DNA of 64,000 bases from positions 96,001 through 160,000 of the forward strand of contig CBDBBI010000010.1 of the NCBI GenBank assembly GCA_965202625.1. The letters are read 5' to 3'. Below, piece after piece: positions 11,148 through 49,077 of the stretch; the first letter of the stretch is position 1, and each line of letters opens with the position of its first letter. A program made the translations under genes and the position numbers. The notes under the pieces were generated by a model that saw only the letters and a program-made list of their open reading frames with translations, was not told the DNA's origin and did not search any database. This stretch comes from a bacterium. GTDB taxonomy: Bacteria > UBA8248.

Positions 11148-12137
11148 TCATCCCCGGACGCTTCGTTTCCATGAAAAACGCCCGACGCGCCCTCCCCGTA
11201 TAAGGCCCCATCGAATGAAGGCGTAGGCCAGCGCGCCGAACCACGCCCCCGAGGACTCCCCGCCGAGGAGCGCGTTCATCATATTCGCGATGAGACCCCC
11301 AAACCAAAAGGAGAACGCCAGAATCGCCCCCTCGGCGGCGACGCGGCCGAGACGCACCGCGAATTGTCTTTGTCTCGCTTGGAATACCTCGCGCTCCGCC
11401 TTTACGCCCACGATCATGGGCGCCAGCCCGCGACGCCAGCCGTGGATGAGCACCATGATCAAATGGCCGATAATGAAAAGGATGAAAAACGCCATGATGA
11501 GAAAGTGCAGAAATCGGCTCGGCTGATAACCTCCGAAAAGATAGGTCAGCCACTTGAACTGGACGGGCTTGAGAATGGCGAGGCCCGTGAGGAGGGAGAG
11601 AACGCCGGCCAGAATAACGGCGTTGTAGGCGAACTTCTGAAGGGGGTTGAATTTTCCCTCTACGGGGGAATGAGGGAAGGTTCGCACAGGATGGAGAAGT
11701 ATCTCCTTCGCGCCGGAGAAATCCGCCCGTGTGATTCGGTAGTGCCTTCCCTCCTCGGTGAGGAGGAGAGAGAGCAGAAAGATCAGGCCGTTGATGGTGT
11801 AGGGCCACATGAGAGCGAAATGCCAGCGCAGCGCACCCGCAAGCCATCCCCCGATGCCGAAGGCGTCCACCAGGCTTTTGACGAACTTTCTGTAGTCGGC
11901 TCCGAAATTGATGGCGCGCGCGTCGGCTTGAGCTTCCCCTGCTCTGAGCGATTCGAAGATGGTCTCCGGATTGGGTCGATCCGGCCCGAAGGCGGGGTAG
12001 GCCCACCATATCTGAATGCCGCTCGCCATCATCAAGAGCAGAAGGGGAACGTTCAACCAGTGGGTGATACGCAGCAGGGATGAGTAAGGGTAGGCGGGAG
12101 CGTCTGCAGATTGCGTCGTTTTTTCCATCTTGTTCAT
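11148..12137 (-). CDS. di-heme cytochrome b (Ni-hydrogenase b-type) membrane partner with C-terminal extra TMs
   Basis: RITHWLN, LRWHF, KFNPLQKFAY, LTGLA, RFLHF...GHL heme-ligand His pattern. Confidence 0.9.
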   Translation of the reverse strand: MNKMEKTTQSADAPAYPYSSLLRITHWLNVPLLLLMMASGIQIWWAYPAFGPDRPNPETIFESLRAGEAQADARAINFGADYRKFVKSLVDAFGIGGWLAGALRWHFALMWPYTINGLIFLLSLLLTEEGRHYRITRADFSGAKEILLHPVRTFPHSPVEGKFNPLQKFAYNAVILAGVLSLLTGLAILKPVQFKWLTYLFGGYQPSRFLHFLIMAFFILFIIGHLIMVLIHGWRRGLAPMIVGVKAEREVFQARQRQFAVRLGRVAAEGAILAFSFWFGGLIANMMNALLGGESSGAWFGALAYAFIRWGLIRGGRVGRFSWKRSVRG

Positions 12138-12655
12138 TCGGCGAGTAGCTGCGCGATCATCGCTTCGGTGCGCGCGTGGTTGCCCTCGCCAATCGTCCTG
12201 AACCGCACTATCCCCTTCTTGTCGATGAGATACTTTGTCGGCCAGTAGCGGTTGTGATAGGCGTTCCAGTTGATGAAGTCGTTGTCCATCACGACCGAGT
12301 ATGCGATGCGGAGCTTGGCCATGGCCTCCTCAACGTTCTCCTTGCTCTTCTCGAAGCCGAACTCGGGCGCGTGGTTTCCGATGACGACCAGTCCCTGGTC
12401 CTTGTAGCGCTCGTGCCACGAACGCAGCGTGGGGATCTCCCGCACGCAGTTGATTCAGCCGAAAGTCCACATGTCGAGGAGCACCACCTTGCCGCGCAAC
12501 CCGGCGAGTTTGAGAGGTGCACCGCCCAGCCACGGTCCGCCTCTCAGCTCGGGCGCTCGCGCGCCGGGCGCAAGTCCTGCTGCACCCGCCTGGTAGAACG
12601 TCCAGAACATGGCGAGAGATACGATGGCGATGACGAAAGGGAGGGTTCGCTTCAT
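12134..12655 (-). CDS. exported TlpA/DipZ-like redoxin, probable selenoprotein (UxxC), 173 aa
   Basis: ORFs 12455-12655 and 12134-12445 are in frame, joined by one TGA (12455-12457): GKVVLLDMWTFG-TGA-INCVREIP, then HAPEF and YWPTKY (cis-Pro). Confidence 0.9.
12427..12447 (-). promoter_or_regulatory. putative SECIS hairpin of redoxin gene
   Basis: GCGUG-C-GGG-AGAU-CCC-CACGC, +8 to +28 after the UGA. Confidence 0.6.
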
Positions 12656-12764
12656 TATGGCCTCCAGGCAACAAAAGAGCTACACATATGCTAATCCTAA
12701 ACGAACGATTGAGCGGATGCAAATACTTCTATACGATGGTTTCATATGTAGCAGGATCGCACGG

Positions 12765-12780
12765 TTTCAGTGATCTGAAA
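12765..12780. promoter_or_regulatory. palindromic putative operator TTTCAG-N4-CTGAAA
   Basis: Perfect 6-4-6 inverted repeat in the AT-rich divergent intergenic region. Confidence 0.4.
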
Positions 12781-12812
12781 ATTAAAATTTCTGTAAAATT
12801 TCGTTCATTGAG

Positions 12813-13169
12813 ATGGAGGGGAATGTGAAACATTACCACTTTGAAGAGATGGCGCCCCACGATACCGGAGAGAGGATTCAGCGCGTGGTGGCGGGGGCGA
12901 ATCTGACCGTGTTGCGCCAGACGATTCGCGCGGGCGTGGACATCTACAATCCCCATTCGCATCCGAACGAGCAGATGACGATCGTTCTCGATGGAAAGGC
13001 GAGGTTCGCGTGCGGTGGTCGGGAGGTCGTGCTCGGGCCGGGCGGCGTGGTGGTCTTTCCGCCGAATGCGGAGCATTCCACCCGAAACGCGGGTGATGGG
13101 GATCTCGTCCTGGAGGAGATTTTTACGCCGGGCGTCAAGAGGCTGAATCGTCTCGCATCAAAGGGATAA
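12813..13169 (+). CDS. cupin domain protein
   Basis: PHSHPNEQ...G......G....PPNAEHS. Confidence 0.9.
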   Translation: MEGNVKHYHFEEMAPHDTGERIQRVVAGANLTVLRQTIRAGVDIYNPHSHPNEQMTIVLDGKARFACGGREVVLGPGGVVVFPPNAEHSTRNAGDGDLVLEEIFTPGVKRLNRLASKG

Positions 13170-13273
13170 GGGGGAGCGACCGGGTCCCTCGGAGAAGGGC
13201 GTGCGTTGTCCGGCCCTGGCGCGTCATCCCCGCTGTTTCGCCACGCTGAAACGCCAGGGGATTGGAGAGCGGC

Positions 13274-14059
13274 ATGAGCCGTCTGACGATTACAGGACTC
13301 AGAAAGGATTTTGACGACGTCAGGGCGGTCGATAACCTCTCCCTCACTTTGGAGGATGGGGAATTCATGGTGCTCGTCGGGCCTACCGGCTGCGGAAAAT
13401 CCACCCTCCTTCGCCTGATCGCCGGATTGGAGGATGAGGATGGGGGCCACATCTACCTTGGTGGCGCCCGTTTGAACGGCGTGCCCCCTGGCCGACGCGG
13501 GGTGCAACTGGTGTTCCAGAACTACGCCCTTTGGCCGCACATGCGGGTTTTTGACGAGAAGAGATACTCCAACCTGGGCTTCGCCCTCAAAATTCGCCGT
13601 TGGCTGCCGGGGATCCTGAACGAGCGCGCCCAAGACTTGATGCGGCGTCTGGGAATCACTAAAACCTGGTCCGGCAGGCATCCGCATCGGCTCAGTTCGG
13701 GCCAGCAGCAAAAAGTGGCGATTGGCCGCGCGATCGCCATCCCCCCGCGTGTCTTTCTCCTTGATGAACCTTTGGCGAACATCGATCCCGTCGCAAGACT
13801 CGAAGTCCGAAAAGAACTAAGGAGGACGCACGAGGAGATCGGTGCCATGAGCCTGTTGGTGACGCACGATTTGTCCGATGCATTTCAGATCGCCGACAGA
13901 ATCGCCGTGATGCGCGACGGGACGATCCTCCAGGTCGATACGCCGGAGAATCTCATCCGCCATCCGGTGGACGGGTTCGTCAAGGGGTTTCTCGCCAGTG
14001 TGCATCATGAAAGGCTGCTGCAAGAGTTTCGGACGAGACGCAGGGCAAGGGGGGCGTAA
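13274..14059 (+). CDS. ABC transporter ATP-binding protein (MalK-like, no TOBE domain)
   Basis: GPTGCGKS, VFQNYAL, LSSGQQQ, LLDEP, VTHD. Confidence 0.9.
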   Translation: MSRLTITGLRKDFDDVRAVDNLSLTLEDGEFMVLVGPTGCGKSTLLRLIAGLEDEDGGHIYLGGARLNGVPPGRRGVQLVFQNYALWPHMRVFDEKRYSNLGFALKIRRWLPGILNERAQDLMRRLGITKTWSGRHPHRLSSGQQQKVAIGRAIAIPPRVFLLDEPLANIDPVARLEVRKELRRTHEEIGAMSLLVTHDLSDAFQIADRIAVMRDGTILQVDTPENLIRHPVDGFVKGFLASVHHERLLQEFRTRRRARGA

Positions 14060-14155
14060 TTCGGTTTCGATGACGCGTTGTGCCCAAGGCGGAGTCTGTA
14101 CCCCGCATGGCCTCTACGCTGCGGCCGGGCATGAGAACTCTGGGCGTCCGCCGAT

Positions 14156-14989
14156 TCATTCCGCCTCGGGGTTTTTTAGGAAATCCCGCCATGCCCTCCA
14201 GTAAGGAGCGCCTCCTTCGAGGTAGGTATCGTTGTGGCCCGCCCCCTTAATGGTGAAAAAACGTTTGTGGCGCGCGCGCGCCGCCTCATAGAGCCGCATC
14301 CCCTGGGCGTGAGGAACGATGTAGTCCCTGTCGCCGTGCAGAATCAGCACGGGCACCTCCACTTTTGGAATCATGGAGGAGGCGTCGAACTTTGGGGAGA
14401 ATAGCCACCCGACAGGCAGGAAAGGAAACATCTTCTTGCCCATGACGACGGTGTTCTCAAACGGACTCTCCAGAATGAGGCCCCGCGTCCTCCTGCCCTC
14501 CGCGGCGAGCTTCACGGCCACCGCCGCCCCGATAGAGCGTCCGAAAAGAAAAACGTGCTCGGGCGCAGCGCGCTCCGAGAGCCAGTCGTAGGCGGCCCTC
14601 CCGTCGGCGTAGAGACCTTCCTCACTCGGTCGTCCCTCGCTTTTTCCAAAGCCCCTGTAGTCGAAGATGAACACGCCGGCGCCGAGTTCCTCCTGAATGC
14701 GCGCAATGTTCTCTGCGCGGTGGGAGAGGTTGCCGGCGTTGCCGTGCGCCCATAGGAGGACAGGGCCGTCGGCCTCTTTGGGCGGGACGCGCCAGCCGTG
14801 AAGCCGCACGCCGTCGCTGGCCCTGAAATGAACGTCTTCGTAATCGACGCCATAGGTTTTAGGCGTCTGTTCGATTTTCCGGTACGGATGATAGAGGAGA
14901 ATACGTTCGAGAGAACCGAGAATTCCCATCCCTATCAGCGCGGCGAGAGCGAGGAGCGCATAGCGATGTAATTTCTGAGAGCGTCGCAA
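14156..14989 (-). CDS. alpha/beta hydrolase (BEM46/ABHD13-like) with N-terminal TM
   Basis: HGNAGN, DYRGFG.SEG.PSE, GRSIG, HGDRD, GAGHND. Confidence 0.9.
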   Translation of the reverse strand: MRRSQKLHRYALLALAALIGMGILGSLERILLYHPYRKIEQTPKTYGVDYEDVHFRASDGVRLHGWRVPPKEADGPVLLWAHGNAGNLSHRAENIARIQEELGAGVFIFDYRGFGKSEGRPSEEGLYADGRAAYDWLSERAAPEHVFLFGRSIGAAVAVKLAAEGRRTRGLILESPFENTVVMGKKMFPFLPVGWLFSPKFDASSMIPKVEVPVLILHGDRDYIVPHAQGMRLYEAARARHKRFFTIKGAGHNDTYLEGGAPYWRAWRDFLKNPEAE

Positions 14990-14999
14990 CGGCTCGTTC

Positions 15000-15416
15000 T
15001 CATCGGGTCGCGCCCATCAAAGCGCGATGAGCGACCTTTATGCAAAGGTCCTGAATCGTGGGGATGCCCGCATCCTCCAGTCGGCGGGCGGACTCAGAAT
15101 GTGCGATGCCCTCTTGCATCCAGAACGCGCTTGGGCGTTTTTTGAGAGCCGCATCCGCCAGAGGGGGTATTTTTTCGGGACGTCTGAATACGTTGACGAT
15201 GTCGATGTGCTCTTCGACGTCGTCTAGGTGCGGATAGGCCCTTTCCCCCAAGGCGGATATAATCTGGGGGTTCACCGGAATGATGCGGTAGCCCGCCTTC
15301 TGGAGGTAGGCCGCGATTTTTCGACTCACTCGCGTGGGGTCGTCCGAGAGGCCGACTACGGCGATGGTTTTCGCCGCCGAAAGAATGTTTGCGACCGCTT
15401 GATTCTCAAGGCGCAC
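15000..15416 (-). CDS. CoA-binding protein (YccU-like)
   Basis: TIAVVGLS, IPVNP, IDIVNVFRR, WMQEGI, DLCIK; GTG start at 15416 assumed. Confidence 0.85.
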   Translation of the reverse strand: MRLENQAVANILSAAKTIAVVGLSDDPTRVSRKIAAYLQKAGYRIIPVNPQIISALGERAYPHLDDVEEHIDIVNVFRRPEKIPPLADAALKKRPSAFWMQEGIAHSESARRLEDAGIPTIQDLCIKVAHRALMGATR

Positions 15417-15659
15417 TCGGGAGTTTCTCCTCCATTCATTTTCCACGATGATACTATACCTTTTGTCAGGAGATTGCGCGCGTGGAGGCGACGATAAGAC
15501 GCCGGCGCGCAAGGGGGTGCTTCCTTCAAATCCGCCGCTGACGCGCTTTCCCGTTGTGCATGGCCTGCATGATAGACGGGGACTGGAGAGAAAATCTCAG
15601 GTTTGTTATTCTTATTTCCTAATGCGTCTTTTCTGTTGTTTTCCAAAGAGGGAAGCGTG

Positions 15660-16349
15660 ATGGCGAACGCGCCGGTTGTCGAGGTTTTTCATGAATACCA
15701 TTGACCCTGGGCCTACATGGCCGCGTCGCGGCTGGACAGGGTGATGCCGCAGTTCGAGGGGAAGTTGTGCCTGAGGTGGCGCGCGTTTCCATTGGAGATC
15801 ATCAACGACCGCGCGGCGCCTCGGCATATTGTGGATCAGGAGTGGCCTCTGGTGGCGGTTCAGGAGCCGCTCGCTCCATGCAGAGGCTGGCCGCCGCACG
15901 AGGCGTATCTGCGCACTACGATGCTCGCCTTTCAAGCCTATGCCAGTGCTTACGCCCGCGTGCCCGAGAAGTCGCGCGCCTACGACTTGAGGCTCAGACG
16001 CGGCTTTTTCTACGAGGGCAGGCGGGTGGATGAGATTTCCGTTCTCGCACAAATCGCCGAGGAATCGGGACTCGACGCCTCAAAGGTGCGCGCGGACCTC
16101 GAATCTGGTGCGTATGAGGAAGCCGTGATGGGCGACTACGAGGAGGCCATGCGCCTGCGGGATGAGGAGGACCTGCCGATGACCAGCCCCACCCTGATCC
16201 TCCCGAGTGGAGAGGCCGTTTACAATCCCTACGCTTCCGAGAAGACTATAGAGGACGGAAAACTGATGGAAGTCCACGCCCCGTCCGCTTGCGGGGAGGC
16301 GGTTTATGCGGGATTTCGGGATATCTTGTCGAGGGCGCTTGAGGGTTGA
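15660..16349 (+). CDS. DsbA/FrnE-like thioredoxin-fold protein, probable selenoprotein (UPWA), 229 aa
   Basis: MANAPVVEVFHEYH-TGA(15702-15704)-PWAYMAA in frame with ORF 15717-16349; TSPTLI cis-Pro loop. Confidence 0.85.
15705..15741 (+). promoter_or_regulatory. putative SECIS hairpin
   Basis: Upper stem GCCGC-GUC-GCGGC (15720-15732); lower stem CCCUG/CAGGG (15705-15709/15737-15741). Confidence 0.7.
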
Positions 16350-16610
16350 AAGGGAGGGGATGATGTGAGAACGAAAGGCGATGCGGCGCGGGAGCGCGCG
16401 AGGGACGTTAACGTTTCTGTGCAAACGGACGCACGTCAGAAACCGTAAAGCATAAGTTTGGCGCGTATCACGTAATTCGCTTCAGGTCGTTTGCGTTCAG
16501 GAACGCTTCGACGAGCGAGAATGCAGCGGCGTCTGTGGGAAACGCTCCGCGCTTAAATATCCGTGTCCTCCTAGGCGGAGGTTTCGTCGCCCCGGTGCTC
16601 TCTTGTTGCC

Positions 16611-17012
16611 TCAGTTGAGAGGATACATCCGTGTGACGCTCAGCCTAGCGAGGAGCCGTCCTTCATCCTGCATGGCGCGCAAGTATTCGACACGGTCGTC
16701 GGGTTCTTTTCCGGTGATGCGCTGATACAGGTCGAGGTTCTTGAGGCCGTCGGTGTCTTCAACGAGCGCGACTTCACCTTCCGCACACAGATAGGGATAG
16801 AAGCTCTCCTGCGGTAACACGCAAAGCGTGGCTCTTGTATCTCGTTGGAGATTCTTCGTTTTCACGCGATTCCATGTCAGCGAGAATTCCACGACCCCCG
16901 CCCGGTGATCGAACACGATCGGCGTGGGGTGGGGTCTGCTGTCCCTGAGTAGGGTGGTGAGGACGCCGTGGTGCTGCGCGTCCAGAAAGGACAAAGCTTC
17001 GTCGCGCGTCAT
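16611..17012 (-). CDS. PPOX-class / pyridoxamine 5'-phosphate oxidase-like split-barrel protein
   Basis: GVLTTLLRDSRPH, KTKNLQRDTR, EG...RLL pattern. Confidence 0.8.
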   Translation of the reverse strand: MTRDEALSFLDAQHHGVLTTLLRDSRPHPTPIVFDHRAGVVEFSLTWNRVKTKNLQRDTRATLCVLPQESFYPYLCAEGEVALVEDTDGLKNLDLYQRITGKEPDDRVEYLRAMQDEGRLLARLSVTRMYPLN

Positions 17013-17179
17013 GGGGCTTCTCCTTCATGTGTTGTGAATGGCGCATTCGGATCCATAGCGTCATGCATCACGTCCTCGGGCGCGGCGGAGACGCCCGCTT
17101 TTGCTGACGCGTCAGAATACCCTATTATGGGTTTTGAGGGAGAGCGGATCATCGAACCAGTGGAGACGGGAGTTCGAAC

Positions 17180-17869
17180 GTGGATGGGAGAAGGGTTGCG
17201 GTCGTCCTTCTGAGCGGCGGCATGGATTCCGCCGTTGTTCTGGCGATGGCGAATCGGAAGGGATTCGCCTGCCAGGCGCTGAGCTTCGACTACGGACAAA
17301 GACATCGGCGCGAGCTCCTGGCGGCGAAGAACGTTGCAAAACAGGTCGGCGCGTTCGGGCACACCATATTGCCCATCGACATGCGCGCCATCGGTGGAAG
17401 CGCGCTCACCGACGACATCGAGGTGCCTAGAGAACGCGAGGACATCGGGGATGGGGTGCCTGTCACGTATGTCCCCGCGCGGAACACCATTTTTCTGAGC
17501 TACGCCCTTGCCCTCGCCGAGGTGAAGGGGGCGCGCGATATTTTTATCGGGGTGAACGCGCTCGATTATTCCGGATATCCGGATTGTCGCCCCGAATATA
17601 TTGAAGCCTACATGCGCATGGCGCGTCTGGCCACGAAGGCGGGCGTCGAAGGCGCGCCTCTCCAGGTGCGGGCGCCTTTGAGCGCGATGCGCAAATCCGA
17701 CATCGTGAGGAGGGGACGTGAGCTGGGGGTGGATTTTTCGCTCACCCATACCTGTTATGACCCAATGGATGCGGGGCGGCCTTGCGGCGCATGCGACGCC
17801 TGCATTCTGCGGCGCAGGGGGTTCGAGGAAGTCGGCGAGTGCGATCCGCTTCCCTATCCTGACGTCTGA
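17180..17869 (+). CDS. queC: 7-cyano-7-deazaguanine synthase
   Basis: [40 protein letters not shown]. Confidence 0.97.
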
Positions 17870-17994
17870 CGCGCGCGAAGCGGATCTTGGGAATGGCGGG
17901 GAACGGATGTTGACACTATAAGGGTGAGAGGATACCCAGAAAAGACCCTATCGGCAGTGGCGAAGAATTGGTCGCCCCATAATTTGGAGGAGAC

Positions 17995-19179
17995 ATGCAA
18001 TACCCATTCACCGAGGAACAACTCGCGCTGGCTGATCTGACGCGGGATTTCATGGATAGTGAGGTCGCGCCCCTCGCCGTGGAGATAGACAGACGGCCCG
18101 ATCCGAAGGATTGCTATCCGGGCGAGCTGCTCAACAAGGCGTCGAAACTCGGTCTGCGCACCATGGCGGTTCCGGAGGAGCACGGCGGCATCGGAGCCGA
18201 TACGATCACGAAAGCCCTTTGCCTCTGGACAGGAGCGCAGATTGAAATCGGCGTGATCAAGTGCCTGAGCCAGTGTTGGAAGATGTCGAACGCGCTCTTC
18301 AAATGTGGCACGGCGGCGCAGATCGAAAAATGGGGAAAGATGTTCGTGGAGGATCATGATTGCGTGGGCTCGTTCGTGATGACGGAGCCGGATTATGGTG
18401 CAGACAATCTCTACCGCCAGCCCGACCCTAGGCTGGGGCTTAAAACCTCGGCGGTCGAAGATGGCGACCACTACGTCATCAACGGGGCGAAGCGCTTCAC
18501 CTCGCTCACGGGCTGGGCGCAGATTTTGCTCGTCTTCGCCCGGACGGACCCCGATGCCCCGGTACATGAAGGAACCACCTGCTTTCTCGTGCGCGGAGAT
18601 CAGGAGGGCGTGACCTACGGCAACGTCCATGACAAGCTCGGCTACCGGCTCTATCCTAACGCCGAGAGCTATTACGACAACGTTCGCGTTCATAAAGACG
18701 ACATCTTGGGCGAGGTGAACAGGGGATTTTATACGTTCGCGACGGTGTTTCGGGGCAGTGCCGAGCTGCCGGCCTGCAACACGGGCATCGCCCGCGGAAT
18801 CTACAATTTCTGCCTCCAGCACGCGAAGGAGCGCGTCCAGGGGGGCAAGCCCATCATCGAGCACCAGGTGATACAGCATCAGCTCGCTGAGATGCTGATG
18901 AACATTGAGGTGGCCGAGCAGTTCATGTGGCGCATCTGCTGGGGCGTGGAGAACGATAAGAGCTTCAACACGCGTTTCACCAGATATGGGAAGGTGTTCA
19001 GCGATCAGGTGGCGCTCAAGACGATTGGCTTTGCCACTGATATTCTCGGCGGCATCGGCATCATGAAGGAGACGCCTACGGAGAAGATGATGCGCGACCT
19101 CATCACCTTCCTGCACGGAGACGGAACGGACTCAATGACCCTTCTACGCGCCGCCCAGACGCTCGACAAACCCGCCTAG
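17995..19179 (+). CDS. acyl-CoA dehydrogenase family protein
   Basis: MTEPDYGAD, INGAKRFTS, DKLG, RVQGGKPI, ILGGIG. Confidence 0.9.
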   Translation: MQYPFTEEQLALADLTRDFMDSEVAPLAVEIDRRPDPKDCYPGELLNKASKLGLRTMAVPEEHGGIGADTITKALCLWTGAQIEIGVIKCLSQCWKMSNALFKCGTAAQIEKWGKMFVEDHDCVGSFVMTEPDYGADNLYRQPDPRLGLKTSAVEDGDHYVINGAKRFTSLTGWAQILLVFARTDPDAPVHEGTTCFLVRGDQEGVTYGNVHDKLGYRLYPNAESYYDNVRVHKDDILGEVNRGFYTFATVFRGSAELPACNTGIARGIYNFCLQHAKERVQGGKPIIEHQVIQHQLAEMLMNIEVAEQFMWRICWGVENDKSFNTRFTRYGKVFSDQVALKTIGFATDILGGIGIMKETPTEKMMRDLITFLHGDGTDSMTLLRAAQTLDKPA

Positions 19180-19235
19180 GAGGGTTGGTTGACGAGTGGG
19201 GCACGCCGCCGCCCGCCCGTTCGGGAGGAAAGACG

Positions 19236-28653: not shown

Positions 28654-29286
28654 TCAGCTTTCCGCTTTTTCCTTCTCTAGGCGTTCTTGCCTTATGCGGT
28701 CGACTTCTGATCTCACGTCTTCAATCACGTCTTTGCCCCAGAAGCGCTTCCCCTCAACCACGAACGTGGGGATTCCGAATATACCCAGGCTTTTCCCCTG
28801 GGCGCGCTGGCTATACAGTGAGCCGATGTAGCGCCGATCGGCGATGACGGTTTTAATTTCCTCTCCATCCAGGCCGACCTCCTCGCCCAGGCGGACGATG
28901 ACGTCCACGTCCTCGAGGTTCAGGTCCTCCACCCAGCGGGCCCTGTAGCAGCGATCCCGAAATTCCTTGAATTTTCCTTTGTCGCGGGCGTAATAGGTAG
29001 CCATGTGAAGTTTGGTGGTGCGGTAGTCCGCCCCCGCCACACGAATGGGCACGTTGTATTTCTCGGCGAGGGGCTTGTGGTTCGTCTCGAAATTCTCCTT
29101 TTTTTGCTCAAGCGAGTAGCCGGCGAACTCCTGTCCCGGGGGCCTCCCCTCCCAGCTGACCCACTCGACGACCACATCGGGTACTTCCTCAATCACCGGC
29201 GTGCCACCCACGGTGGCGACGTAGCAAAATGGTCATGTGTAATCCGAGTATTTCACCACGATGATTGGTTCTTTCAGCCCACCCAT
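28654..29286 (-). CDS. DsbA/FrnE-like protein, probable selenoprotein (UPFC), 210 aa
   Basis: MGGLKEPIIVVKYSDYT-TGA(29233-29235)-PFCYVA in frame with ORF 28654-29211; GIFGIPTF...FWG; GGAGG RBS. Confidence 0.9.
29200..29221 (-). promoter_or_regulatory. putative SECIS hairpin
   Basis: CGU-C-GCCACC-GUG-GGUGGC-ACG, +12 to +33 after the UGA. Confidence 0.7.
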
Positions 29287-39824: not shown

Positions 39825-40015
39825 CCGCGGAGATGGTTCTCGCCCGAGCGGCTTCAGAATATGGATTTTTGATCTTCAAACCTTATGGTGATAGAGTCGC
39901 CCTTGCGTCCTGGAAGCATCACCGGATTTTAGCGGCCATGAATTGTCGGGGTGATGGAATGTCTCGTGATGCCCCTGCTGGGACGTTTCGCGCATCGGAA
40001 TTGTGAATAGGAGGG

Positions 40016-41355: not shown

Positions 41356-41484
41356 AATCTGGTTTTTTGCGCTTTGTAGCCGTATGTTCGTTTTGCGAGC
41401 CGGTGCGTCATCTCTTGCTGAGCGAGAAAGTTGCTCTTGAGCGCGCTTCACCAAAATTTTCTTATACAAATCAAGGAGCAGGGA

Positions 41485-42603
41485 ATGCGAAGGGAGAATG
41501 GCCACAGAGTTCCCATTGGCCTCGCCGTCGTCGGCTGCGGGAAGATCGGTAGAATTCGGGCGGAATTCGCCCGCGACTATCCGGGTGTTGAGTGGCTGGG
41601 CCTTTGCGATATTGATGAGAAATTGGGGCGGAGACTCGCTGATGAGACGAACGCCGATTTTTTCACCAAGGACTATCGCGCGCTTTTGGCTCGTCCGGAG
41701 GTGAACGCCTCCATCATTGCCACGGAGGAGAACGAGCACGTAGGCCCCATACTGGCCTCCGTGGATGGGGGCCACGCCCTGTTCATTGAGAAGCCGCTGG
41801 CCACGAACGCGGTGGATTCCGCCCGGGTTCTCAAGGCCATTGAAGATGCAGGTCTGGATGCGGTGGTCGGCTACACCCAGCGTTTCCGACGGCGTTTTTT
41901 GGTTGCGAAGGAGAAGATTCGCACCGGCCAGCTGGGGGATGTCACCACGGTCGTCACGCGCGCTTTCATGAACCGCCTGGTCCCCATCGCCACGGTGGAG
42001 AAAACAGAGTATCGCGGCATTCTTACACCGATGGTCGTCTCGGGGACGCATAGCCTCGACATCTGCATGTGGTTCATGGAAGGGAAATTGCCAGTAGAAG
42101 TCTATGCGCGTTCAACAGACAAGACGCTTGGCGCGTCCTATGGGACCAAGGACGCTACCCTTGGCATCTTCACCTTTGAGGATGGCACCCTATGGAGCAT
42201 GAACATCTCATGGGCGTTGCCGACGGTTTGGCCTGGCTCAGTCTATAGCCTGGAAATTGGCATCGTGGGTACCGAGGGTGTTCTCACGATTGATGACACA
42301 CACCGGGATTTGGTTCTCGCCAGCGAAAACGCGCAGCCTGCGGGTTATACCCCCGACGTGAAGCGAAACGTGGATTTTCTGGCGAGCTATCCGCCTGGGG
42401 ACGTCGTTTTCGAGCAGCTCTGGGGCCCGATGCGGGAGGAGACCAACGCTTGGTTCGGACGTGTGCACACGGGCCTTGAAACGCCGCACGCCACCGTGCA
42501 GGACGGGCACCGAAATCTGTTGCTCACGATGGCGATGGACGTTTCGGCGCATCGTAGAGCACCTGTTTCGTTGCCCATGGACATCCATGCATATGGGGAA
42601 TGA
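41485..42603 (+). CDS. Gfo/Idh/MocA oxidoreductase
   Basis: VGCGKIG, IEKPLA, VGYTQRF, GTHSLD. Confidence 0.9.
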   Translation: MRRENGHRVPIGLAVVGCGKIGRIRAEFARDYPGVEWLGLCDIDEKLGRRLADETNADFFTKDYRALLARPEVNASIIATEENEHVGPILASVDGGHALFIEKPLATNAVDSARVLKAIEDAGLDAVVGYTQRFRRRFLVAKEKIRTGQLGDVTTVVTRAFMNRLVPIATVEKTEYRGILTPMVVSGTHSLDICMWFMEGKLPVEVYARSTDKTLGASYGTKDATLGIFTFEDGTLWSMNISWALPTVWPGSVYSLEIGIVGTEGVLTIDDTHRDLVLASENAQPAGYTPDVKRNVDFLASYPPGDVVFEQLWGPMREETNAWFGRVHTGLETPHATVQDGHRNLLLTMAMDVSAHRRAPVSLPMDIHAYGE

Positions 42604-42634
42604 CGAATTTTCGAGTGGGGAGAGAGGAGCACAA

Positions 42635-43033
42635 ATGCCGTTTTATGAGATCGAGGGAATGAAGGAGAGTTGGAGCAAAACGAACCCCAGAGTCACAGCC
42701 AAAAGCGTCGTGGGCGAGTTCATGAAGGTGGGTGTTGTCACCAAGCCGGAGGGCGAGGGACCCCCGCTCCACGTGCACCCGAACGAGGAGCAGTTCACTC
42801 TCATTCTGGATGGCAAGTTGCACTATATTCTCGGCGAGGAGGACAAGATCGTAGAGCGTGGGGACTTGATTCATATCCCCAGGCATACGAACCACAGAAG
42901 CCGATCCGTTGGCGGCGATGCCACTTTTTTCACCGTGAAGTTTCCGGCCGGAACAGGAGATCTGGATGCGGATTACAATATGGCGGAAGGAGCGGAGAAT
43001 GCAGAGAAAAAGTATCCAGGAAACCGGGGCTGA
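42635..43033 (+). CDS. cupin domain protein
   Basis: PLHVHPNEEQ...G......GD..HIP...NH. Confidence 0.9.
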   Translation: MPFYEIEGMKESWSKTNPRVTAKSVVGEFMKVGVVTKPEGEGPPLHVHPNEEQFTLILDGKLHYILGEEDKIVERGDLIHIPRHTNHRSRSVGGDATFFTVKFPAGTGDLDADYNMAEGAENAEKKYPGNRG

Positions 43034-43103
43034 GATGAGACTTCATGGTCGCCTTCGATGAGAGAGGTATTTTGAGGATTTCAGGGTGGGCGAGAGGTTT
43101 CAG

Positions 43104-43514
43104 ATGGAAGCGAAAACCTTGTCCACCGAAGAGATCGTCGCATTCGCCGAGTTATACGACCCGCAGCCTTTCCACGTCGATGAGAGGGCGGCGGCAGCAT
43201 CTCCCTATGGCGGACTTATTGCTAGCGGATTTCATACAGTGGCGATCTCGTTCCGTCTGTTCATTGATACGGGCGTCATTAAAACCACAGGGATGGGTTC
43301 GCCTGGAATGGACTCCATACGCTGGATGAAGCCCGTTCGCCCTGGAGACGCCTTGAGGGTAGAGGCGGAAGTGATGGAGGCGCGCGCTTCCCGTTCGCAG
43401 CCTGGGCGTGGAATCGTCCCCATGGAGTTCAGTACCTTCAACCAGAAAAACGAATTGGTGCTCACGATGCGCGCCGTGCACTTGGTGCGCAAAAAAGAGG
43501 TTGTCAGTGCGTAG
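43104..43514 (+). CDS. MaoC-family dehydratase
   Basis: YDPQPFHVD, GLIASGFHT, PVRPGD. Confidence 0.9.
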   Translation: MEAKTLSTEEIVAFAELYDPQPFHVDERAAAASPYGGLIASGFHTVAISFRLFIDTGVIKTTGMGSPGMDSIRWMKPVRPGDALRVEAEVMEARASRSQPGRGIVPMEFSTFNQKNELVLTMRAVHLVRKKEVVSA

Positions 43515-43525
43515 GCGGCGGAGTT

Positions 43526-44422
43526 TCACACGTTGGTGATGACGGCGAGCGTGCCGAAGAGGATGGCGGTTGCCCCCGCCACGACGCGCCAGTTCAGCCT
43601 CTCTTCAGAGCGGAGAAAAATCCACGATATCGCAATGGTGAACAAGGGCCTTGATTGGGAGATGGGGAAAGCGTAGACGACGGGCGCGTTCGACAGGGCG
43701 AGGTAGAGGAACGTGACCCCGAGGCTTGCGGACAGACCGGCTAGAACGAGAAACCCCCAGTGACCGAAGGTCCAAGTTTTGATTTCGCTTATCTTCCCTT
43801 TGCGAGAGAAGAAGGGCAAAAAGGGCAGGACGGCGAGAAGGTTGGAATAGAAGTTCGCCTCGTTGGCGGAGGTGAAATATCCTACCGCCGGACGCGCCAG
43901 CACCGCCGCCGCTCCGAGTGCCGCCGCGCAGCCGAGCGCCAACCCCATACCGATGAAGCGACCGCTTTGTCCCTTTTCACCCTGGTGGTTACAGTGGCTC
44001 CGGGAAATGAAAACGTACCCGCCAAACACCAGGGTGGTTCCCAGACCGATCGAGAACGTGAGTTTTTCTCCGAGCAGAGCAACGCCGAATAGGACGGCGA
44101 ATATTAAATTTGTCGCAACGGCGACGCTCGTGCGCGCGGCGCCGATGTGTTGGGTGGCGGCGAAGAGCATCGTGCGCGCGATCGTGACCCTGAAAATCCC
44201 CGAAACGGCGATAAATAGAAGGGGCCAGCCCAGTCCGGGCCAGGGATCTGCAAAATCTCCGCCCAGAAAGGAGACGGTACCGAGAATGGGGAGGCCAATG
44301 ATGGCAGTGAAGGCCGCGCCCATGATGGGGTCTATGCCCCGAACGGCGAGGCGTCCGAATATATCTCGTAGCGCGAGTAAAATGGCGGAGACAAGGGCGT
44401 ATATGGCGGCCGGATCAAACAC
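43526..44422 (-). CDS. DMT/EamA family transporter
   Basis: About 10 TMs in two repeats, LGEKL and EERL motifs. Confidence 0.85.
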   Translation of the reverse strand: MFDPAAIYALVSAILLALRDIFGRLAVRGIDPIMGAAFTAIIGLPILGTVSFLGGDFADPWPGLGWPLLFIAVSGIFRVTIARTMLFAATQHIGAARTSVAVATNLIFAVLFGVALLGEKLTFSIGLGTTLVFGGYVFISRSHCNHQGEKGQSGRFIGMGLALGCAAALGAAAVLARPAVGYFTSANEANFYSNLLAVLPFLPFFSRKGKISEIKTWTFGHWGFLVLAGLSASLGVTFLYLALSNAPVVYAFPISQSRPLFTIAISWIFLRSEERLNWRVVAGATAILFGTLAVITNV

Positions 44423-44858
44423 CCCTAAATTTCAGCGTCTCGATCACTTGCTGGACGCGTTCCTCAACAATCTCGATCATTTTCGGATGAAAGCCGAGAT
44501 GGGGGCCGAGAATGACGTCGATATCCGGGTATCTGCTCCGGCCTCGCTTGATGAATACGGGTAAATCCGCTTTTACGTGGTTGCCTTTGAACAGAAAATA
44601 AGGGATGACAATGATTCTCTCGGCTCCTTTTTCCACGCAAAGGTCGATGCCCTCGGGAATGGAGGGGTGGCTGATCTCCAAAAACGCTGCCTCTAGAATG
44701 CGATGCGGCCAGGCTTTTTGGAAATGCTCCACGACGAGGAGAAGCGCGTCGTTAGCGTTTTTCGCGCGACTGCCGTGACCAACGAGCAATACCGCCGTTT
44801 TCACCTTGTCCCGTGGCGTCGCGTCTAAAAATTCGAGTTGCCTTTCTAGGCTAGGCAT
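44415..44858 (-). CDS. sirohydrochlorin chelatase (CbiX/SirB)
   Basis: VGHGSR, AFLE, PYFLFKGNH. Confidence 0.92.
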   Translation of the reverse strand: MPSLERQLEFLDATPRDKVKTAVLLVGHGSRAKNANDALLLVVEHFQKAWPHRILEAAFLEISHPSIPEGIDLCVEKGAERIIVIPYFLFKGNHVKADLPVFIKRGRSRYPDIDVILGPHLGFHPKMIEIVEERVQQVIETLKFRGV

Positions 44859-46651
44859 TCGCCTTCTCCTCTCTCCAACACGTATTGTTTGTCCTGACTC
44901 CAGTCGATGAACAAATCAGAATCAGGGGTGTCGTTGAATTGCCCGGCAAGGTGGAACTCTCGCAATAGTTTCTCAAAGGAAGCGACACCCACGCGATCCA
45001 GAAAATCGTTGAAGCGCTCCCCCTCGCGCCTGTTTTCCTGGTAGTGAGACAACATTTTTTTGAGCGCGTCGGGAACGCGCTTTGCAGGAATGCGAACCTG
45101 AATGCGTTCGCCGATGCGGATTTCCCCATCGGTTCGTTCGTATTCGCCTCCCAGAAAAATTTCGTAGGCGGGGAGCATCATGCCGTTCGCCCTGAGCGTT
45201 CCGCCATGAAAACCGATATTGGCGATGTGATGCTGGCCGCAGGAATTCGGACAGCCGCTCATCTTGATGTGTATCTCCCGTGTGAGCGGGTCATGCTCGA
45301 TTTCGCGGAGCGTTTCTCGTATAGCACCCGCCAGACCCATGGAGGAGGTGATGCCAAGTTTGCAAGAATCCGTTCCTGGACAAGAAACCACGTCGGATAT
45401 CTCGCGGGCGCCTTCCTCACTCAGCCCAATGTGCTGGAGCTCTTTCCATAAGGAATAGAGCGCGCATTCGGGCACCCACCTGAGGACGAGGTTTTGCTCA
45501 AAACTCGCTCTTGCGCGTCCTCTTGCGAAACGTCGAGTGATATCCGCCAAGGCGAAAAATTGCTCCGTCAGAACGTTCCCTAGGGGCAGTTTGATTTCGA
45601 CGGCGAAGTAGCCTTCCTGCCTTTGGGCGGAGACGTTCGCGCTTCGCCAGGCGTCATAATCCGCTGCATCGCCGTTTGGGTTCGACTCTGCCCCATGAAG
45701 GGTTTTCAGGACGGACGGGGCGTCGGTGCTCTCGTCATCTTGCCAAAGATAGGGTTCGGGGTTGCAGGGTTCTTTCGCCCAGTCTTTCTCCAGCTCTTCC
45801 TCCACGCGCGCGCGCAGTCCGTCTATCCCGATCCAGTGCACCAAGAATTTGATGCGCGCCTTGAATCGGGATTTCCGCAGTTCGACGGCCTGGTCGAAAA
45901 CGCGGATGAGGGCCTCGCTCACCCTCAGGAAGTCAGAGACTGGAACGAACTCGTAAAGAGCCTCGGCGGTGCGCGCGAAAGTGGCGAGTCCACCGCCGAC
46001 GAGCATCTTGAATCCACGAACGGACGCTCCTTCCGCCTCCTTGATGACGGGGATGAAGCCGATATCGTGAATTCCACCCACCACGCAGTCCGAAGCGCAG
46101 CTGGAGAAAGCCACCTTGAATTTGCGCGGGAGGTCCTGTGTGAAATCTTTGCGCACGAAATAACGGGCGAATGCGCCCGCGTAAGGTGTGGCGTCGAAAG
46201 CCTGATCCTTGCAGACGCCAGCGTAGGGGCAGCCGGTGACGTTTCTCACGCAGTTGCCGCATGCTTCCCGCGTAGTGAGCCCCACTTCGCCGAGAAGCCG
46301 CAAGACGTCGGCGGCCTTGTCGAGTGGAACGAAGTGGAACTGTACGTTTTCCCGCGTCGTCACGTGGCCTTTTCCCAATGGCGCGTAATGGCGGGATACG
46401 CGCCCCAGGGCTTCGAGTTGAGAGGCACTTAGGCCGCCAAAGGGGATTTTTACGCGCACCATCTGCGCATCCGCTTGGCGCTGACCGTATACACCGCGCC
46501 TGAGCCGATAAGGGAGAAACGCACCGCCATCACGTTCGCCGTTTTGAAATTTGGCGACCTCGGTTTCAAAATCATCGAATTCTTCGGGAATCACCGGAAT
46601 GACGCCGACCTCTTGTTGAGATGCCAATTTTTTTGATCCATGGCGCATCAT
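44846..46651 (-). CDS. siroheme nitrite/sulfite reductase hemoprotein (ferredoxin-type)
   Basis: GVYGQRQ, TTRENVQ, LPRKFK, SCPGTDSC, SGCPNSC siroheme/4Fe-4S ligands. Confidence 0.93.
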   Translation of the reverse strand: MMRHGSKKLASQQEVGVIPVIPEEFDDFETEVAKFQNGERDGGAFLPYRLRRGVYGQRQADAQMVRVKIPFGGLSASQLEALGRVSRHYAPLGKGHVTTRENVQFHFVPLDKAADVLRLLGEVGLTTREACGNCVRNVTGCPYAGVCKDQAFDATPYAGAFARYFVRKDFTQDLPRKFKVAFSSCASDCVVGGIHDIGFIPVIKEAEGASVRGFKMLVGGGLATFARTAEALYEFVPVSDFLRVSEALIRVFDQAVELRKSRFKARIKFLVHWIGIDGLRARVEEELEKDWAKEPCNPEPYLWQDDESTDAPSVLKTLHGAESNPNGDAADYDAWRSANVSAQRQEGYFAVEIKLPLGNVLTEQFFALADITRRFARGRARASFEQNLVLRWVPECALYSLWKELQHIGLSEEGAREISDVVSCPGTDSCKLGITSSMGLAGAIRETLREIEHDPLTREIHIKMSGCPNSCGQHHIANIGFHGGTLRANGMMLPAYEIFLGGEYERTDGEIRIGERIQVRIPAKRVPDALKKMLSHYQENRREGERFNDFLDRVGVASFEKLLREFHLAGQFNDTPDSDLFIDWSQDKQYVLERGEGECLA

Positions 46652-46719
46652 ATGCTCCTTACGTGAACGTCTATTGATTTGTCAGATGATGAATCTGGAA
46701 CCGGGGCGAGGCCCGGAGT

Positions 46720-47529
46720 TTATGAAACGGCTTTGCTCAGGGGTTCTTGCGTCGAACAGCGCCAAGAGATTTCCTGGCTTTCATCGGCCTCGAACCAGAT
46801 GAGGTCTTCAATTCCGGCGACCGGACCCACGAGGAAGACGGCGGGCGAAGATACCTCTTCTCGTTGCGCGAGACTCCCTGCTTCTCCCAGTGTCGCGCGA
46901 TGGGTTGATTGTCCTCGCATGGTGCCATTTTCTATGATCGCAGTGGGCGTGTCCTTCGACATACCGTTTTCCATCAGAGCGGCTGATATGCGCCCGATGG
47001 CGCGCGCACCCATCAGAAAAACGAGTGTTCCGTTGCTCTTCGCAAGGTGCGCGTAATCTACCCGCGTTTCTGGCTTTCTCGGGTCTTCATGGGCGGTTAC
47101 GACGGTGAACGATGAGGCGAGGTCTCGGTGCGTTACGGGAATGCCAGCGTAGGCGGGAGCGGCTACGGCGGAACTGACGCCCGGTACGATTTCATAGCGA
47201 ACGCCGGCCCTGGCCAGGGTTTGTGCCTCCTCGCCCCCGCGGCCGAAAACGAAAGGGTCGCCGCCTTTCAGTCGCACCACCCGAAAGCCGCTTCGAGCGA
47301 AATGAAGGAGAGATTCGTTGATGGCGTCCTGGGTCATGGTATGGCGGCCAGCGGATTTTCCAGCGTCAATCAGCCGGCAACCTTCCGGACAAAGCCGAAG
47401 AATCTCAGTTTTTACGAGGCGGTCATGAATCACCACATCCGCGTTTGAAAGAGCCTTAGCCGCTTTGAGTGTGAGCAGGTCCGGGTCTCCGGGGCCTGCG
47501 CCTACGATCTGCACTGTTCCGTGGCACAT
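46720..47529 (-). CDS. cobA: uroporphyrinogen-III C-methyltransferase
   Basis: VGAGPGDPDLLT, RLKGGDPFVFGRGGEE, PGVSS. Confidence 0.95.
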   Translation of the reverse strand: MCHGTVQIVGAGPGDPDLLTLKAAKALSNADVVIHDRLVKTEILRLCPEGCRLIDAGKSAGRHTMTQDAINESLLHFARSGFRVVRLKGGDPFVFGRGGEEAQTLARAGVRYEIVPGVSSAVAAPAYAGIPVTHRDLASSFTVVTAHEDPRKPETRVDYAHLAKSNGTLVFLMGARAIGRISAALMENGMSKDTPTAIIENGTMRGQSTHRATLGEAGSLAQREEVSSPAVFLVGPVAGIEDLIWFEADESQEISWRCSTQEPLSKAVS

Positions 47530-47560
47530 GTTGAATTCCTGTGTAAAATTTATTTTTATT

Positions 47561-47579
47561 GTTAAGTATATTACTTAAC
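47561..47579. promoter_or_regulatory. 8-3-8 palindromic operator GTTAAGTA-TAT-TACTTAAC
   Basis: Perfect inverted repeat about 30 nt upstream of cobA in an AT-rich divergent promoter region. Confidence 0.6.
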
Positions 47580-47693
47580 TTTTTGTGAAAATATGTTAAT
47601 TTTCTTCTTTTGTCAACGAGCGCGCGCGTTTATTTTCAAAAGGGCTTTGTTGAGGGTGCCGTTGTTCGTATCACTTTTTGCGGAGGGGCGTAG

Positions 47694-48296
47694 GTGATGG
47701 AAGAGAGGTCTATGCGGCTTGAAAATGCTTTGCGTCTCATTGATGAGGCGAATGCGAAGGATCCGAACGCCGAGCGTTTCGAGGGCACATATTATCCTCA
47801 GGCGCTTCTGTATGCAATGCGAATGACAAAATGGCTTGAAGCACTGGAGCCTCAAGCCTCTGAGGTTTTGCGTTTGGCGGCGCGCAGCCAGCATATACGC
47901 AGGTGGGAAATTCCGCGTTCAGATTATCCGCTTGATCGCAGGGGGTATCATCAATGGCGAACCCACCTTTACGTCTATCATGGCGAGAAGGCGGCTGAAA
48001 TTCTAAAAGAAGTGGGTTATGGTGAAGAAACGATAGCCCGGGTGAGAATGTTGTTGAAAAAGCAAGGTCTGAAATCCGACACGGAGACCCAAATGCTTGA
48101 GGACGTCGCCTGCCTGGTGTTTTTGGAGAGCTATTTTTGGGATTTCTCCCGGCAGCACGATGAAGAGAAAATTATTGGAATTTTGCGTAAAACGTGGCGA
48201 AAAATGTCCGCGCGCGGGCGAGAGTTCGCCAGGGAGATTCCGTTGAGTGCCGGGGCGGAAGTGTTGCTGAGGAGAGCACTCACGCCTCCAACGTAG
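47694..48296 (+). CDS. DUF4202 family protein
   Basis: IDEAN..DPN, AARSQHIRRW..PR, LEDVACLVF, KTWRKMS. Confidence 0.85.
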   Translation: MMEERSMRLENALRLIDEANAKDPNAERFEGTYYPQALLYAMRMTKWLEALEPQASEVLRLAARSQHIRRWEIPRSDYPLDRRGYHQWRTHLYVYHGEKAAEILKEVGYGEETIARVRMLLKKQGLKSDTETQMLEDVACLVFLESYFWDFSRQHDEEKIIGILRKTWRKMSARGREFAREIPLSAGAEVLLRRALTPPT

Positions 48297-48417
48297 CGAA
48301 AGGCAACGATTCCTAACGGTTCCGGAAAAGATTTTGTCCCGCTTTCTCGTCCCTGTTTTTGTGGTGTATGATGATGACATTCTGTTTTTTTGACGGCTCA
48401 TTCTTAAGGAGATGATA

Positions 48418-49077
48418 ATGAACCTCACCATGTGGAACTGCTACGTTTGACCCTACGCCTACAGGGCCATGGAATGGCTCGTTCGCCTTCAGGAGAGAAG
48501 AAGCAATCTCAAGGTCGATTACAAGGCCTTCGTTCTTGAGCAGGCGAATTTTGCCCCCTCGCGGGGCGAGGATTGGAAGGCTTGGGAGGATCGCACCTTT
48601 CCGAGCAGGGATTTGCCCCCCCATGAGGCGGCCAAGTGCGCGGCCTTGCAGGGCGAGACGCAGTTTGACAAATACCACGTGGTGCTTCACAGGGCGAAGC
48701 ACCGGTATGGCAAGGACATCACGAGCGAGCTGGTTTTGCGCGACATCGCCTTGGAGGTAGGGCTTGACGTCGGTCGCTGGGAGGAGGACATGAAGAACGG
48801 TGCCACCATTCCCCTCATCGCGCAAGAGCACGAAGAGGCCGAGGAGCAGGGCGTCTTTGGCGTGCCTACGCTGGACTTCGGCGAGGGCAAGCCCGTCTTC
48901 GTGAAACTTGAGGAGGGAGATTGGGAAAAGGACGGCGACGAGGCTGGTCTGTTCGACGCCGTGAGAGCCACGTCGGCCCAGCGGCCCTATCTGCTTGAGC
49001 TGAAAACGCCCGAATCCGCCAAGCGCACCTCCGCCTCGGCGAAGAAGTATGAGAAATATGGCGTCAAGGCGAGATAG
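48418..49077 (+). CDS. DsbA-like protein, probable selenoprotein (C-Y-V-U-P-Y-A), 219 aa
   Basis: AAGGAG then MNLTMWNCYV-TGA(48448-48450)-PYAYRAM in frame with ORF 48469-49077; GVFGVPTL cis-Pro loop. Confidence 0.87.
48464..48480 (+). promoter_or_regulatory. putative SECIS hairpin
   Basis: GGGCCAU-GGA-AUGGCUC, +14 to +30 after the UGA. Confidence 0.7.

Follow-up and report, generated by a model that had tools for sequence, protein, structure and literature searches.

Does a 64,000-nucleotide stretch of a bacterial genome hold four genes in which a TGA codon encodes selenocysteine (Sec; U in protein sequences) instead of ending translation? The stretch, hereafter the window, covers positions 96,001 to 160,000 of contig CBDBBI010000010.1 (GenBank assembly GCA_965202625.1; GTDB lineage UBA8248). 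A reading made from its letters and open reading frames (the sequence-only reading) had proposed that four unlinked thioredoxin-fold genes, three of them DsbA-like, each carry TGA at the codon of the N-terminal redox cysteine (Cys), that they point to a selenoprotein-rich genome with a lineage-specific expansion of Sec-containing DsbA-like proteins, and that standard gene callers truncate them. From the recoding signature, its conservation, the Sec machinery of the genome, and the family assignments, we conclude that the four are very probably genuine selenoprotein genes in which UGA is read as Sec.

Translating the window's open reading frames (ORFs) with TGA read as U located the four Sec codons (Table 1). 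Each gene has a single interruption of its frame, the TGA, and both Pfam matches and alignments put it at the N-terminal redox Cys, as had been claimed. Genes 2, 3, and 4 are indeed DsbA-like: they match PF01323 (DSBA; gathering score, 25.6 bits) with E values of 1.1e-13 (51.9 bits), 2.3e-26 (93.2 bits), and 3.5e-17 (63.3 bits), respectively, and each match spans the U. Gene 1 matches AhpC-TSA (7.6e-11) and Redoxin (1.7e-7), both above the cut-off and both spanning U67. This redoxin domain is combined with a W-x-x-x-C-x-x-C motif carrying Sec and with a hydrophobic N terminus, judged by eye to be an export signal or anchor, which are the features of ResA/TlpA/DipZ-type proteins. Among the DsbA-like genes, gene 3 has a dithiol-type U-x-x-C site (U-P-F-C), while genes 2 (U-P-W-A) and 4 (U-P-Y-A) do not; the position of the second Cys is Ala in 9/9 gene 2 orthologs and in 8/9 gene 4 orthologs. 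Gene 4 carries a Cys at position -3. All 8 class-level orthologs in the alignment share it; the outgroup sequence L070 and the crystallized protein 7dk9 have Asp there. Three further TGA candidates in the window (at 40004, 6473, and 62910) were ruled out by Pfam.

The source genome (3.09 Mb in 10 contigs, 58.6% G+C, 99.7% complete, 4.7% contaminated) encodes the full Sec machinery, which the sequence-only reading had named as a check on its proposal. selA (565.5 bits; cut-off, 267.9), selB (361.4 bits; cut-off, 242.25), and selD (332.6 bits) all score above their curated cut-offs, and a single tRNA-Sec (75.8 bits; gathering score, 47) is reported by ARAGORN as tRNA-SeC (tca), 97 nt long. selB lies ~0.9 kb from selA on the same strand; selD (C10:1611050-1612009, minus strand; locus L018) itself has one in-frame TGA and is thus a gene for a Sec-containing SelD. 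Among 50 tRNAs called by ARAGORN, the anticodon UCA occurs only in tRNA-Sec. ARAGORN also calls a 92-nt "tRNA-???" whose anticodon has two bases (C10:2546655-2546746, plus strand; L212:201-292); it has no Rfam match at E values up to 1 and is probably false. The 2,215 non-overlapping ORFs of at least 150 amino acids (aa) end in TGA (1,084), TAG (641), or TAA (490). TGA is therefore the commonest stop of long ORFs and not a general sense codon in this genome; since genes 1 to 3 themselves end at a second TGA, a single message would use the codon both for Sec and for termination.

We searched the read-through proteins against 40 related genomes and fetched and aligned 37 homologs; these genomes are kin, and counts across them are not independent events, a reservation to which we return below. 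Every one of 22 same-genus genomes has, for each of the four genes, an ortholog with exactly one internal TGA (74 to 89% identity). The family has two other genera, and each carries TGA-bearing orthologs of genes 1 to 3; for gene 4, one of them does (G024), and the other (G023) holds a fragment at a contig end. Across the 7 genomes of the class's second family, gene 1 has a TGA-bearing ortholog in 6, gene 2 in 4, and gene 4 in all 7. Gene 3 has close orthologs there (65 to 71% identity) in 2/7 genomes and TGA-bearing homologs (37 to 71%) in 5/7.

The residue found in homologs was another check proposed at the outset, and it bears the proposal out. Of the homologs aligned, 31 bear a TGA (7, 8, 7, and 9 for genes 1 to 4), and every one has it in the column of the window gene, an agreement well beyond what chance would give. 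The gene 1 column holds TGA in 7/7 TGA-bearing orthologs and Cys in two TGA-free orthologs, L041 (WTYS-C-INC) and L042 (WTFG-C-INC). For gene 3, TGA likewise fills the column in 7/7 TGA-bearing homologs, with Cys in the TGA-free L061 (YV-C-PFC) and Ser in a divergent pair of paralogs, L059 and L060. The gene 4 column is TGA in 9/9 homologs aligned, among them the outgroup L070 (FDFL-U-PFV). The gene 2 column is TGA in 8/9 aligned orthologs, the ninth (L051, G033:C82:7748-8640) being without the N-terminal part: its match begins at residue 28 with unlike sequence upstream, and its N terminus may be disrupted or rearranged. In one same-genus genome, G006, the four orthologs lie on one contig in the same order over ~49 kb.

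Solved structures extend the comparison to Cys-containing proteins. Residues 23 to 171 of gene 1 align with the thioredoxin-like domain of Mycobacterium tuberculosis DipZ (PDB 2hyx; E = 5.9e-43), whose CINC stands opposite U-INC. The nearest counterparts of genes 2 and 3 are FrnE entries: a profile of gene 2 orthologs matches 5cp1 (E = 1.2e-11) with U opposite the first Cys of CPWC, and gene 3 matches 5cp1/5cnw (E = 1.1e-12), its U-PFC lying opposite CPWC. For gene 4, an ortholog profile hits PDB 7dk9 (E = 5e-24) and places U against the Cys of FLCPYAW; the companion entry 7dka has Ser in this column. Since the 7dk9 site reads C-P-Y-A, a Cys-form protein with the same single-Cys site has already been crystallized. 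From these alignments we infer a DsbA/thioredoxin fold for the four proteins.

The remaining part of the recoding signature is a selenocysteine insertion sequence (SECIS) downstream of each UGA. We applied the bacterial SECIS (bSECIS) criteria given in section 5 of a 2026 review (PMC13188914): a loop of 3 to 9 nt with G in its first two positions, an upper stem of 4 to 16 bp, a UGA-to-loop distance of 16 to 37 nt, and an energy of at most -7.5 kcal/mol. All four Sec sites pass, compared with 32 of 150 true TGA stops of long ORFs; at the control rate, the chance that four of four would pass is about 0.002. Conservation of a hairpin is stronger evidence for a SECIS than its presence. All 9 sequences keep the gene 2 hairpin, in which one pair changes in a compensatory way (UA in 5, GC in 4), and the loop-adjacent pair of the gene 4 hairpin varies among UA (3), UG (3), and CG (3) in an alignment of 10 sequences, being broken in 1. 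In both genes, an amino acid change on one side of the stem (by our reading, Ala to Ser and Met to Thr) is offset by a synonymous change opposite. The 6 closest sequences retain the five predicted consensus pairs of the gene 3 hairpin, which are weakened in the two homologs of 38 to 42% identity. Gene 1 has two candidates, H1 (12427-12447; loop AGAU, 16 nt after the UGA, -12.1 kcal/mol) and H2 (12407-12425; loop about 37 nt after the UGA); its class-level orthologs have a different hairpin with the loop AGUUG. Together with the complete machinery, TGA as the main stop codon, and conservation at the catalytic column, these SECIS-type hairpins support the recoding to Sec that had been proposed.

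Several observations weigh against this conclusion or limit what can be built on it. Besides the kinship of the genomes, the hairpins taken singly count for little: as 21% of true stops pass the bSECIS criteria, the presence of a hairpin is weak evidence, and under looser criteria 277 of the 623 candidates of a genome scan described below pass as well. A single class-wide conserved hairpin was not found for gene 1, and no compensatory change was seen in the aligned homologs of gene 3. Shuffled sequence folds as stably as the 63-nt stretches at genes 2, 3, and 4 (z = 0.11, -0.31, and 0.03, respectively). We therefore set fold stability aside and relied on the bSECIS criteria with their true-stop control and on covariation. 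Across the whole window, Rfam at gathering thresholds gave no SECIS family and only two tRNAs. None of the four proteins reaches the cut-off of a curated NCBIfam model: gene 1 scores 60.9 bits against ResA NF002854 (cut-off, 170) and 27.2 against WAxxUGC NF041054 (cut-off, 300), the seleno-lipoprotein model Rcas_1661 (NF041057; cut-off, 190) gives 38.7 or 26.9, and gene 2 matches no NCBIfam model. Finally, the organism is known from its assembled genome alone, and what we say of selenium incorporation, cellular location, and substrates is read from sequence.

These points have to be set against what other explanations would require. If the TGAs were true stops, the only products would be shorter ones begun at a downstream ATG or GTG, with a thioredoxin fold lacking its catalytic residue. 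TGA is the commonest stop codon, standard ORF calling yields exactly such ORFs (103 aa for gene 1, 210 aa for gene 2), and all six public homologs of gene 2 that we inspected start past the TGA. Yet the short peptide encoded before each TGA shows protein-level conservation and fills out the active-site motif, both the TGA-free orthologs and the solved homologs continue through the column with Cys, the Pfam matches begin upstream of the U, and a conserved hairpin lies at SECIS distance, so that we regard termination as very improbable. Much the same low probability attaches to a UGA recoded to another residue (Cys, Trp, or Gly) by a suppressor tRNA or an altered code. Cys would be chemically suitable at these positions, and the sequence-only reading had itself considered a Cys-inserting tRNA, but the sole tRNA with a UCA anticodon is the 97-nt tRNA-Sec, the selA/selB/selD set is complete, and a code in which TGA ends about half of long ORFs, and three of these four genes themselves, has not been reassigned.

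That the TGAs might be nonsense mutations or assembly errors in pseudogenes gains some color from two TGA-interrupted genes elsewhere in the assembly, a pgk paralog and a PGA_cap gene, which look damaged and whose orthologs mostly lack the TGA. The four genes differ from these on the decisive point: TGA-bearing orthologs occur in 22/22 congeneric genomes and in other families, and wherever they were aligned the TGA stands at the catalytic column. Its persistence there over this range of divergence makes a mutation or assembly error unlikely; conservation effectively refutes this explanation, and we give it next to no weight. Decoding of the four UGAs as Sec thus remains our preferred interpretation.

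Table 1. Features of the window discussed in the text (positions are those of the window; U numbering is that of the read-through protein)
Feature	Position	Strand	Detail
Gene 1, DipZ/ResA/TlpA-like redoxin	12134..12655	-	ORF 12137-12655, 173 aa; TGA stop 12134-12136
Gene 1 Sec-UGA	12455..12457	-	U67, motif WTFG-U-INC; translation with TGA=U
Gene 1 SECIS candidates H1 and H2	12407..12447	-	bSECIS criteria
Gene 2, DsbA/FrnE-like	15660..16349	+	ORF 15660-16346, 229 aa; TGA stop 16347-16349
Gene 2 Sec-UGA	15702..15704	+	U15, motif HEYH-U-PWA; translation with TGA=U
Gene 2 SECIS-type hairpin	15719..15733	+	GGCCGC-GUC-GCGGCU; UGA-to-loop 20 nt
Gene 3, FrnE-type DsbA-like	28654..29286	-	ORF 28657-29286, 210 aa; TGA stop 28654-28656
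Gene 3 Sec-UGA	29233..29235	-	U18, motif DYT-U-PFC (UxxC); translation with TGA=U
Gene 3 SECIS-type hairpin	29203..29217	-	GCCACC-GUG-GGUGGC; UGA-to-loop 21 nt
Gene 4, DsbA-like	48418..49077	+	ORF 48418-49074, 219 aa; end 49075-49077
Gene 4 Sec-UGA	48448..48450	+	U11, motif NCYV-U-PYA (CxxU); translation with TGA=U
Gene 4 SECIS-type hairpin	48464..48480	+	GGGCCAU-GGA-AUGGCUC; UGA-to-loop 20 nt
Cytochrome b561-like gene	11148-12137	-	Pfam Ni_hydr_CYTB 1.9e-16; ATG overlaps gene 1 TGA stop (ATGA)
Molybdopterin oxidoreductase-domain gene	10035-10847	-	Pfam Oxidored_molyb 2.3e-29; after the cytochrome b561-like gene

The predicted truncation by gene callers holds for standard-code ORFs, which shorten gene 1 to 12134-12445 and gene 2 to 15717-16349, and for the public records inspected. 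Searched against 5.8 billion predicted proteins, gene 2 has 60 homologs of 135 to 227 aa; the six inspected, which include the window's own 185-aa call and one partial record, all start downstream of the U. Public names for gene 2 homologs are "hypothetical protein" (from Nitrospinota bacterium and also from Candidatus Tectomicrobia bacterium) and "predicted DsbA family dithiol-disulfide isomerase"; the name of a Candidatus Tectomicrobia bacterium homolog also begins "DSBA-like thi...". The public contigs closest to gene 3 are labeled "Nitrospinota bacterium" (84, 72, 71, and 65% identity), "uncultured Nitrospinaceae bacterium" (72 and 59%), and "Candidatus Tectomicrobia bacterium" (70%).

How far does Sec use extend beyond the window? 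We scanned the genome de novo with six-frame hexamer likelihood margins on both sides of every in-frame TGA, which gave 623 candidates (an earlier hexamer model was dropped for poor separation of frames). Fifty of them, chosen by eye on score, motif, and paralogy, were submitted to Pfam, and a family was accepted when its domain spanned the U or, for GrdB/PrdB-like proteins, abutted it. The accepted families are CMD/AhpD-like with CxxU (8, or 10 with two paralogs that have no Pfam hit), OsmC (4), UGSC (3), GrdB/PrdB-like (3), Deiodinase-like (2), Rhodanese (2), AhpC-TSA (2), and one each of Thioredoxin, DUF3179, MGMT (P-U-HRV), Rdx/SelW-like, a Blh-type sulfur-transferase/phosphatase domain (H-U-KATGR), DSBA beyond the window, and CoA-transferase-like. 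Fifteen of the 50 were rejected (L153, L162, L169, L174, L186 to L190, L194, L195, and L198 to L201), mostly as two genes in one frame or for a U outside the domain match, and one for want of a family. No Sec-containing formate dehydrogenase surfaced in the scan, and no search was aimed at it.

By scan and Pfam, and including the window's four genes and selD, the genome has about 38 selenoprotein genes, a rough figure that is probably too low insofar as 573 of the 623 candidates lay outside the Pfam check and the scan applied length filters, and that may be too high insofar as conservation of the TGA in relatives was examined for a minority and two CMD paralogs are counted without a Pfam match of their own. 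The genome is thus selenoprotein rich, as the sequence-only reading had expected.

Two candidates passed Pfam and were nevertheless dropped. L152, a PGA_cap/CapA-like gene (C10:1681159-1681968, minus strand; ASNH-U-MDYG), has mostly orthologs without the TGA: 18 close-ortholog rows comprise 13 with no stop, 3 with TGA, and 2 with TAA, and three close orthologs carry Cys. Its ORF is 270 aa long versus about 350 aa, and the gene is either damaged or a case of Cys recently replaced by Sec. L197, a pgk paralog with an in-frame TGA (C10:394149-394919, minus strand), differs from all 18 of its same-genus orthologs, which are TGA-free; its ORF begins only at position 132 of the Pfam profile, an intact pgk lies at C10:172888-173655, and L197 probably reflects damage to a paralog or a fault in the assembly.

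A further candidate, L160 (C10:1017697-1018521, plus strand), resembles subunit A of a CoA-transferase and has its TGA in EHA-U-ASVLAGLRA, within a Pfam CoA_trans match (2.4e-21) that spans the site. Of the 18 same-genus genomes that were searched, 17 have a TGA-bearing ortholog (18 rows in all, as G006 accounts for two), and four aligned homologs without the TGA have Cys (3) or His (1). CoA-transferase (PF01144) is unmentioned in the text of the 2026 review (PMC13188914), and L160 may represent an undescribed selenoprotein family. Several candidates on the small contigs C2, C3, C5, C7, C8, and C9 duplicate C10 loci, the peptide context being identical or almost so (for example, C2:13186/C10:2152353, C7:12030/C10:232710, C5:9717/C10:2913160, and C9:16188/C10:2477591). 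Such duplication points to redundant or strain-variant pieces in the assembly and fits its 4.7% contamination.

A PF01323 search of the genome returned five DSBA genes, four of them with a TGA; the fourth Sec-DsbA-like gene lies outside the window (C10:699473, motif FL-U-PWC). The expansion that had been claimed is therefore real in number, at four genes per genome, but it is not a recent lineage-specific burst. The three window paralogs are 23 to 32% identical to one another, each has class-level TGA-bearing orthologs, and TGA-bearing Sec-DsbA homologs are present even in G039, a genome ranked only "same domain", all of which makes the expansion old.

The four genes belong to known selenoprotein families, and the phenomenon is largely in print (PMC1088965, PMC13188914, PMC13326102). 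Sec-containing DsbA-like and thiol-disulfide isomerase-like families date back to 2005, when the Sargasso Sea metagenome study listed nine DsbA-like (COG2761, UxxC) and four thiol-disulfide isomerase-like (UxxC) sequences (PMC1088965). Table 3 of Peng et al. (2016) gives 45 DsbA-like selenoproteins in 41 organisms (PMC5029168). The table of the 2026 review has DsbA-like form 1 (UxxC), DsbA-like form 2 (DxxUP, citing Peng 2016), Redoxin-family, TlpA-type (UxxC), and thiol-disulfide isomerase-like proteins, along with most of the families from our genome scan (PMC13188914). The top ten of BSepDB, a 2026 database, includes three GTDB UBA8248 genomes labeled "Nitrospinota", "Nitrospinaceae", or "Nitrospinae", with 54, 50, and 48 selenoprotein genes (PMC13326102, Table 2), and the public contigs closest to gene 3 bear similar labels; against these 48 to 54, the figure of about 38 for the present genome is a lower bound. 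These very genes may already be in BSepDB.

Within these families the window genes differ in their active sites. Gene 3 and the gene at C10:699473 resemble DsbA-like form 1 (COG2761/FrnE): both belong to PF01323, have Sec at the first position of CxxC, and lack a signal peptide by eye, and FrnE is the closest solved structure. Genes 2 and 4, in contrast, have no Cys at +3, and this genome has four Sec-DsbA-like genes. Gene 4 shares with form 2 (DxxUP) the PF01323 domain and a U followed by Pro, and Asp stands at -3 in L070 (FDFL-U-PFV) and 7dk9 (FDFL-C-PYA); on a comparison by listed motif only, however, position -3 is Cys in gene 4 (CYV-U-P) and Glu in gene 2 (EYH-U-P). The WTFG-U-INC of gene 1 matches the W-x-x-x-C-I-N-C of the DipZ domain (2hyx, 5cyy) and is TlpA-like, but gene 1 has Sec where DipZ has Cys and is a stand-alone protein of 173 aa without fusion to a CcdA/DsbD membrane domain. 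Least described so far are the single-Sec sites of genes 2 and 4 (U-P-W/Y-A) and the CxxU of gene 4, possibly variants of the families already listed.

In the mechanism that we propose, SelB and Sec-tRNA(Sec) would read each in-frame UGA as Sec, guided by a small SECIS hairpin within the coding sequence that starts 10 to 20 nt after the UGA. Sec would then occupy the nucleophilic position of a thioredoxin-fold active site, at the N terminus of helix alpha-1. Gene 1 would encode an exported or membrane-anchored thiol-disulfide reductase of the DipZ/ResA type whose U-x-x-C site probably cycles via a selenenylsulfide, and gene 3 a putative cytoplasmic FrnE-type DsbA-like oxidoreductase with U-P-F-C. 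With a single Sec and Ala at +3, genes 2 and 4 cannot form the canonical selenenylsulfide with position +3; the resolving thiol would probably come from a low-molecular-weight compound or, for gene 4, from its conserved Cys at -3.

A bolder reading, which we offer only tentatively and think rather doubtful as a whole, is that genes 2 and 4 belong to a monoselenol enzyme class and are not disulfide oxidoreductases, that the lineage has turned four of its five DSBA genes, almost all of its non-secreted DsbA/FrnE proteins, to selenium, and that the gene 2 subfamily is confined to the lineage and exists only in Sec form. As part of that same doubtful reading, the activities might, for example, be those of transferases or isomerases that depend on a small thiol, in the manner of GST-kappa and HCCA isomerase, or of selenenic-acid peroxidases.

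The neighborhood of gene 1 hints at its possible role. Gene 1, the cytochrome b561-like gene, and the molybdopterin oxidoreductase-domain gene (Table 1) probably form one operon, and this company suggests an envelope redox module. The arrangement presumably resembles MsrQ/MsrP-type envelope repair systems, and a role for gene 1 in envelope redox repair would be plausible. By Pfam, the neighbors of genes 2 to 4 (CoA-binding, PNPOx-like, amine-oxidase-like flavoprotein, alpha/beta-hydrolase-fold with NIL domain, and DUF4202) give no functional clue.

Both the families and the selenoprotein richness of "Nitrospinota" genomes are already published, and the window opens no new kind of system. What it adds is examples of a Sec-based thiol-redox toolkit: a DipZ-like, putatively exported reductase beside a molybdoenzyme/cytochrome b pair and, in the genome as a whole, four DsbA/FrnE-like paralogs. 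Where public gene calls start past the TGA, the catalytic residue is lost, and functional inference from such calls is wrong. This uncultured lineage appears to be among the most selenoprotein-rich bacteria.

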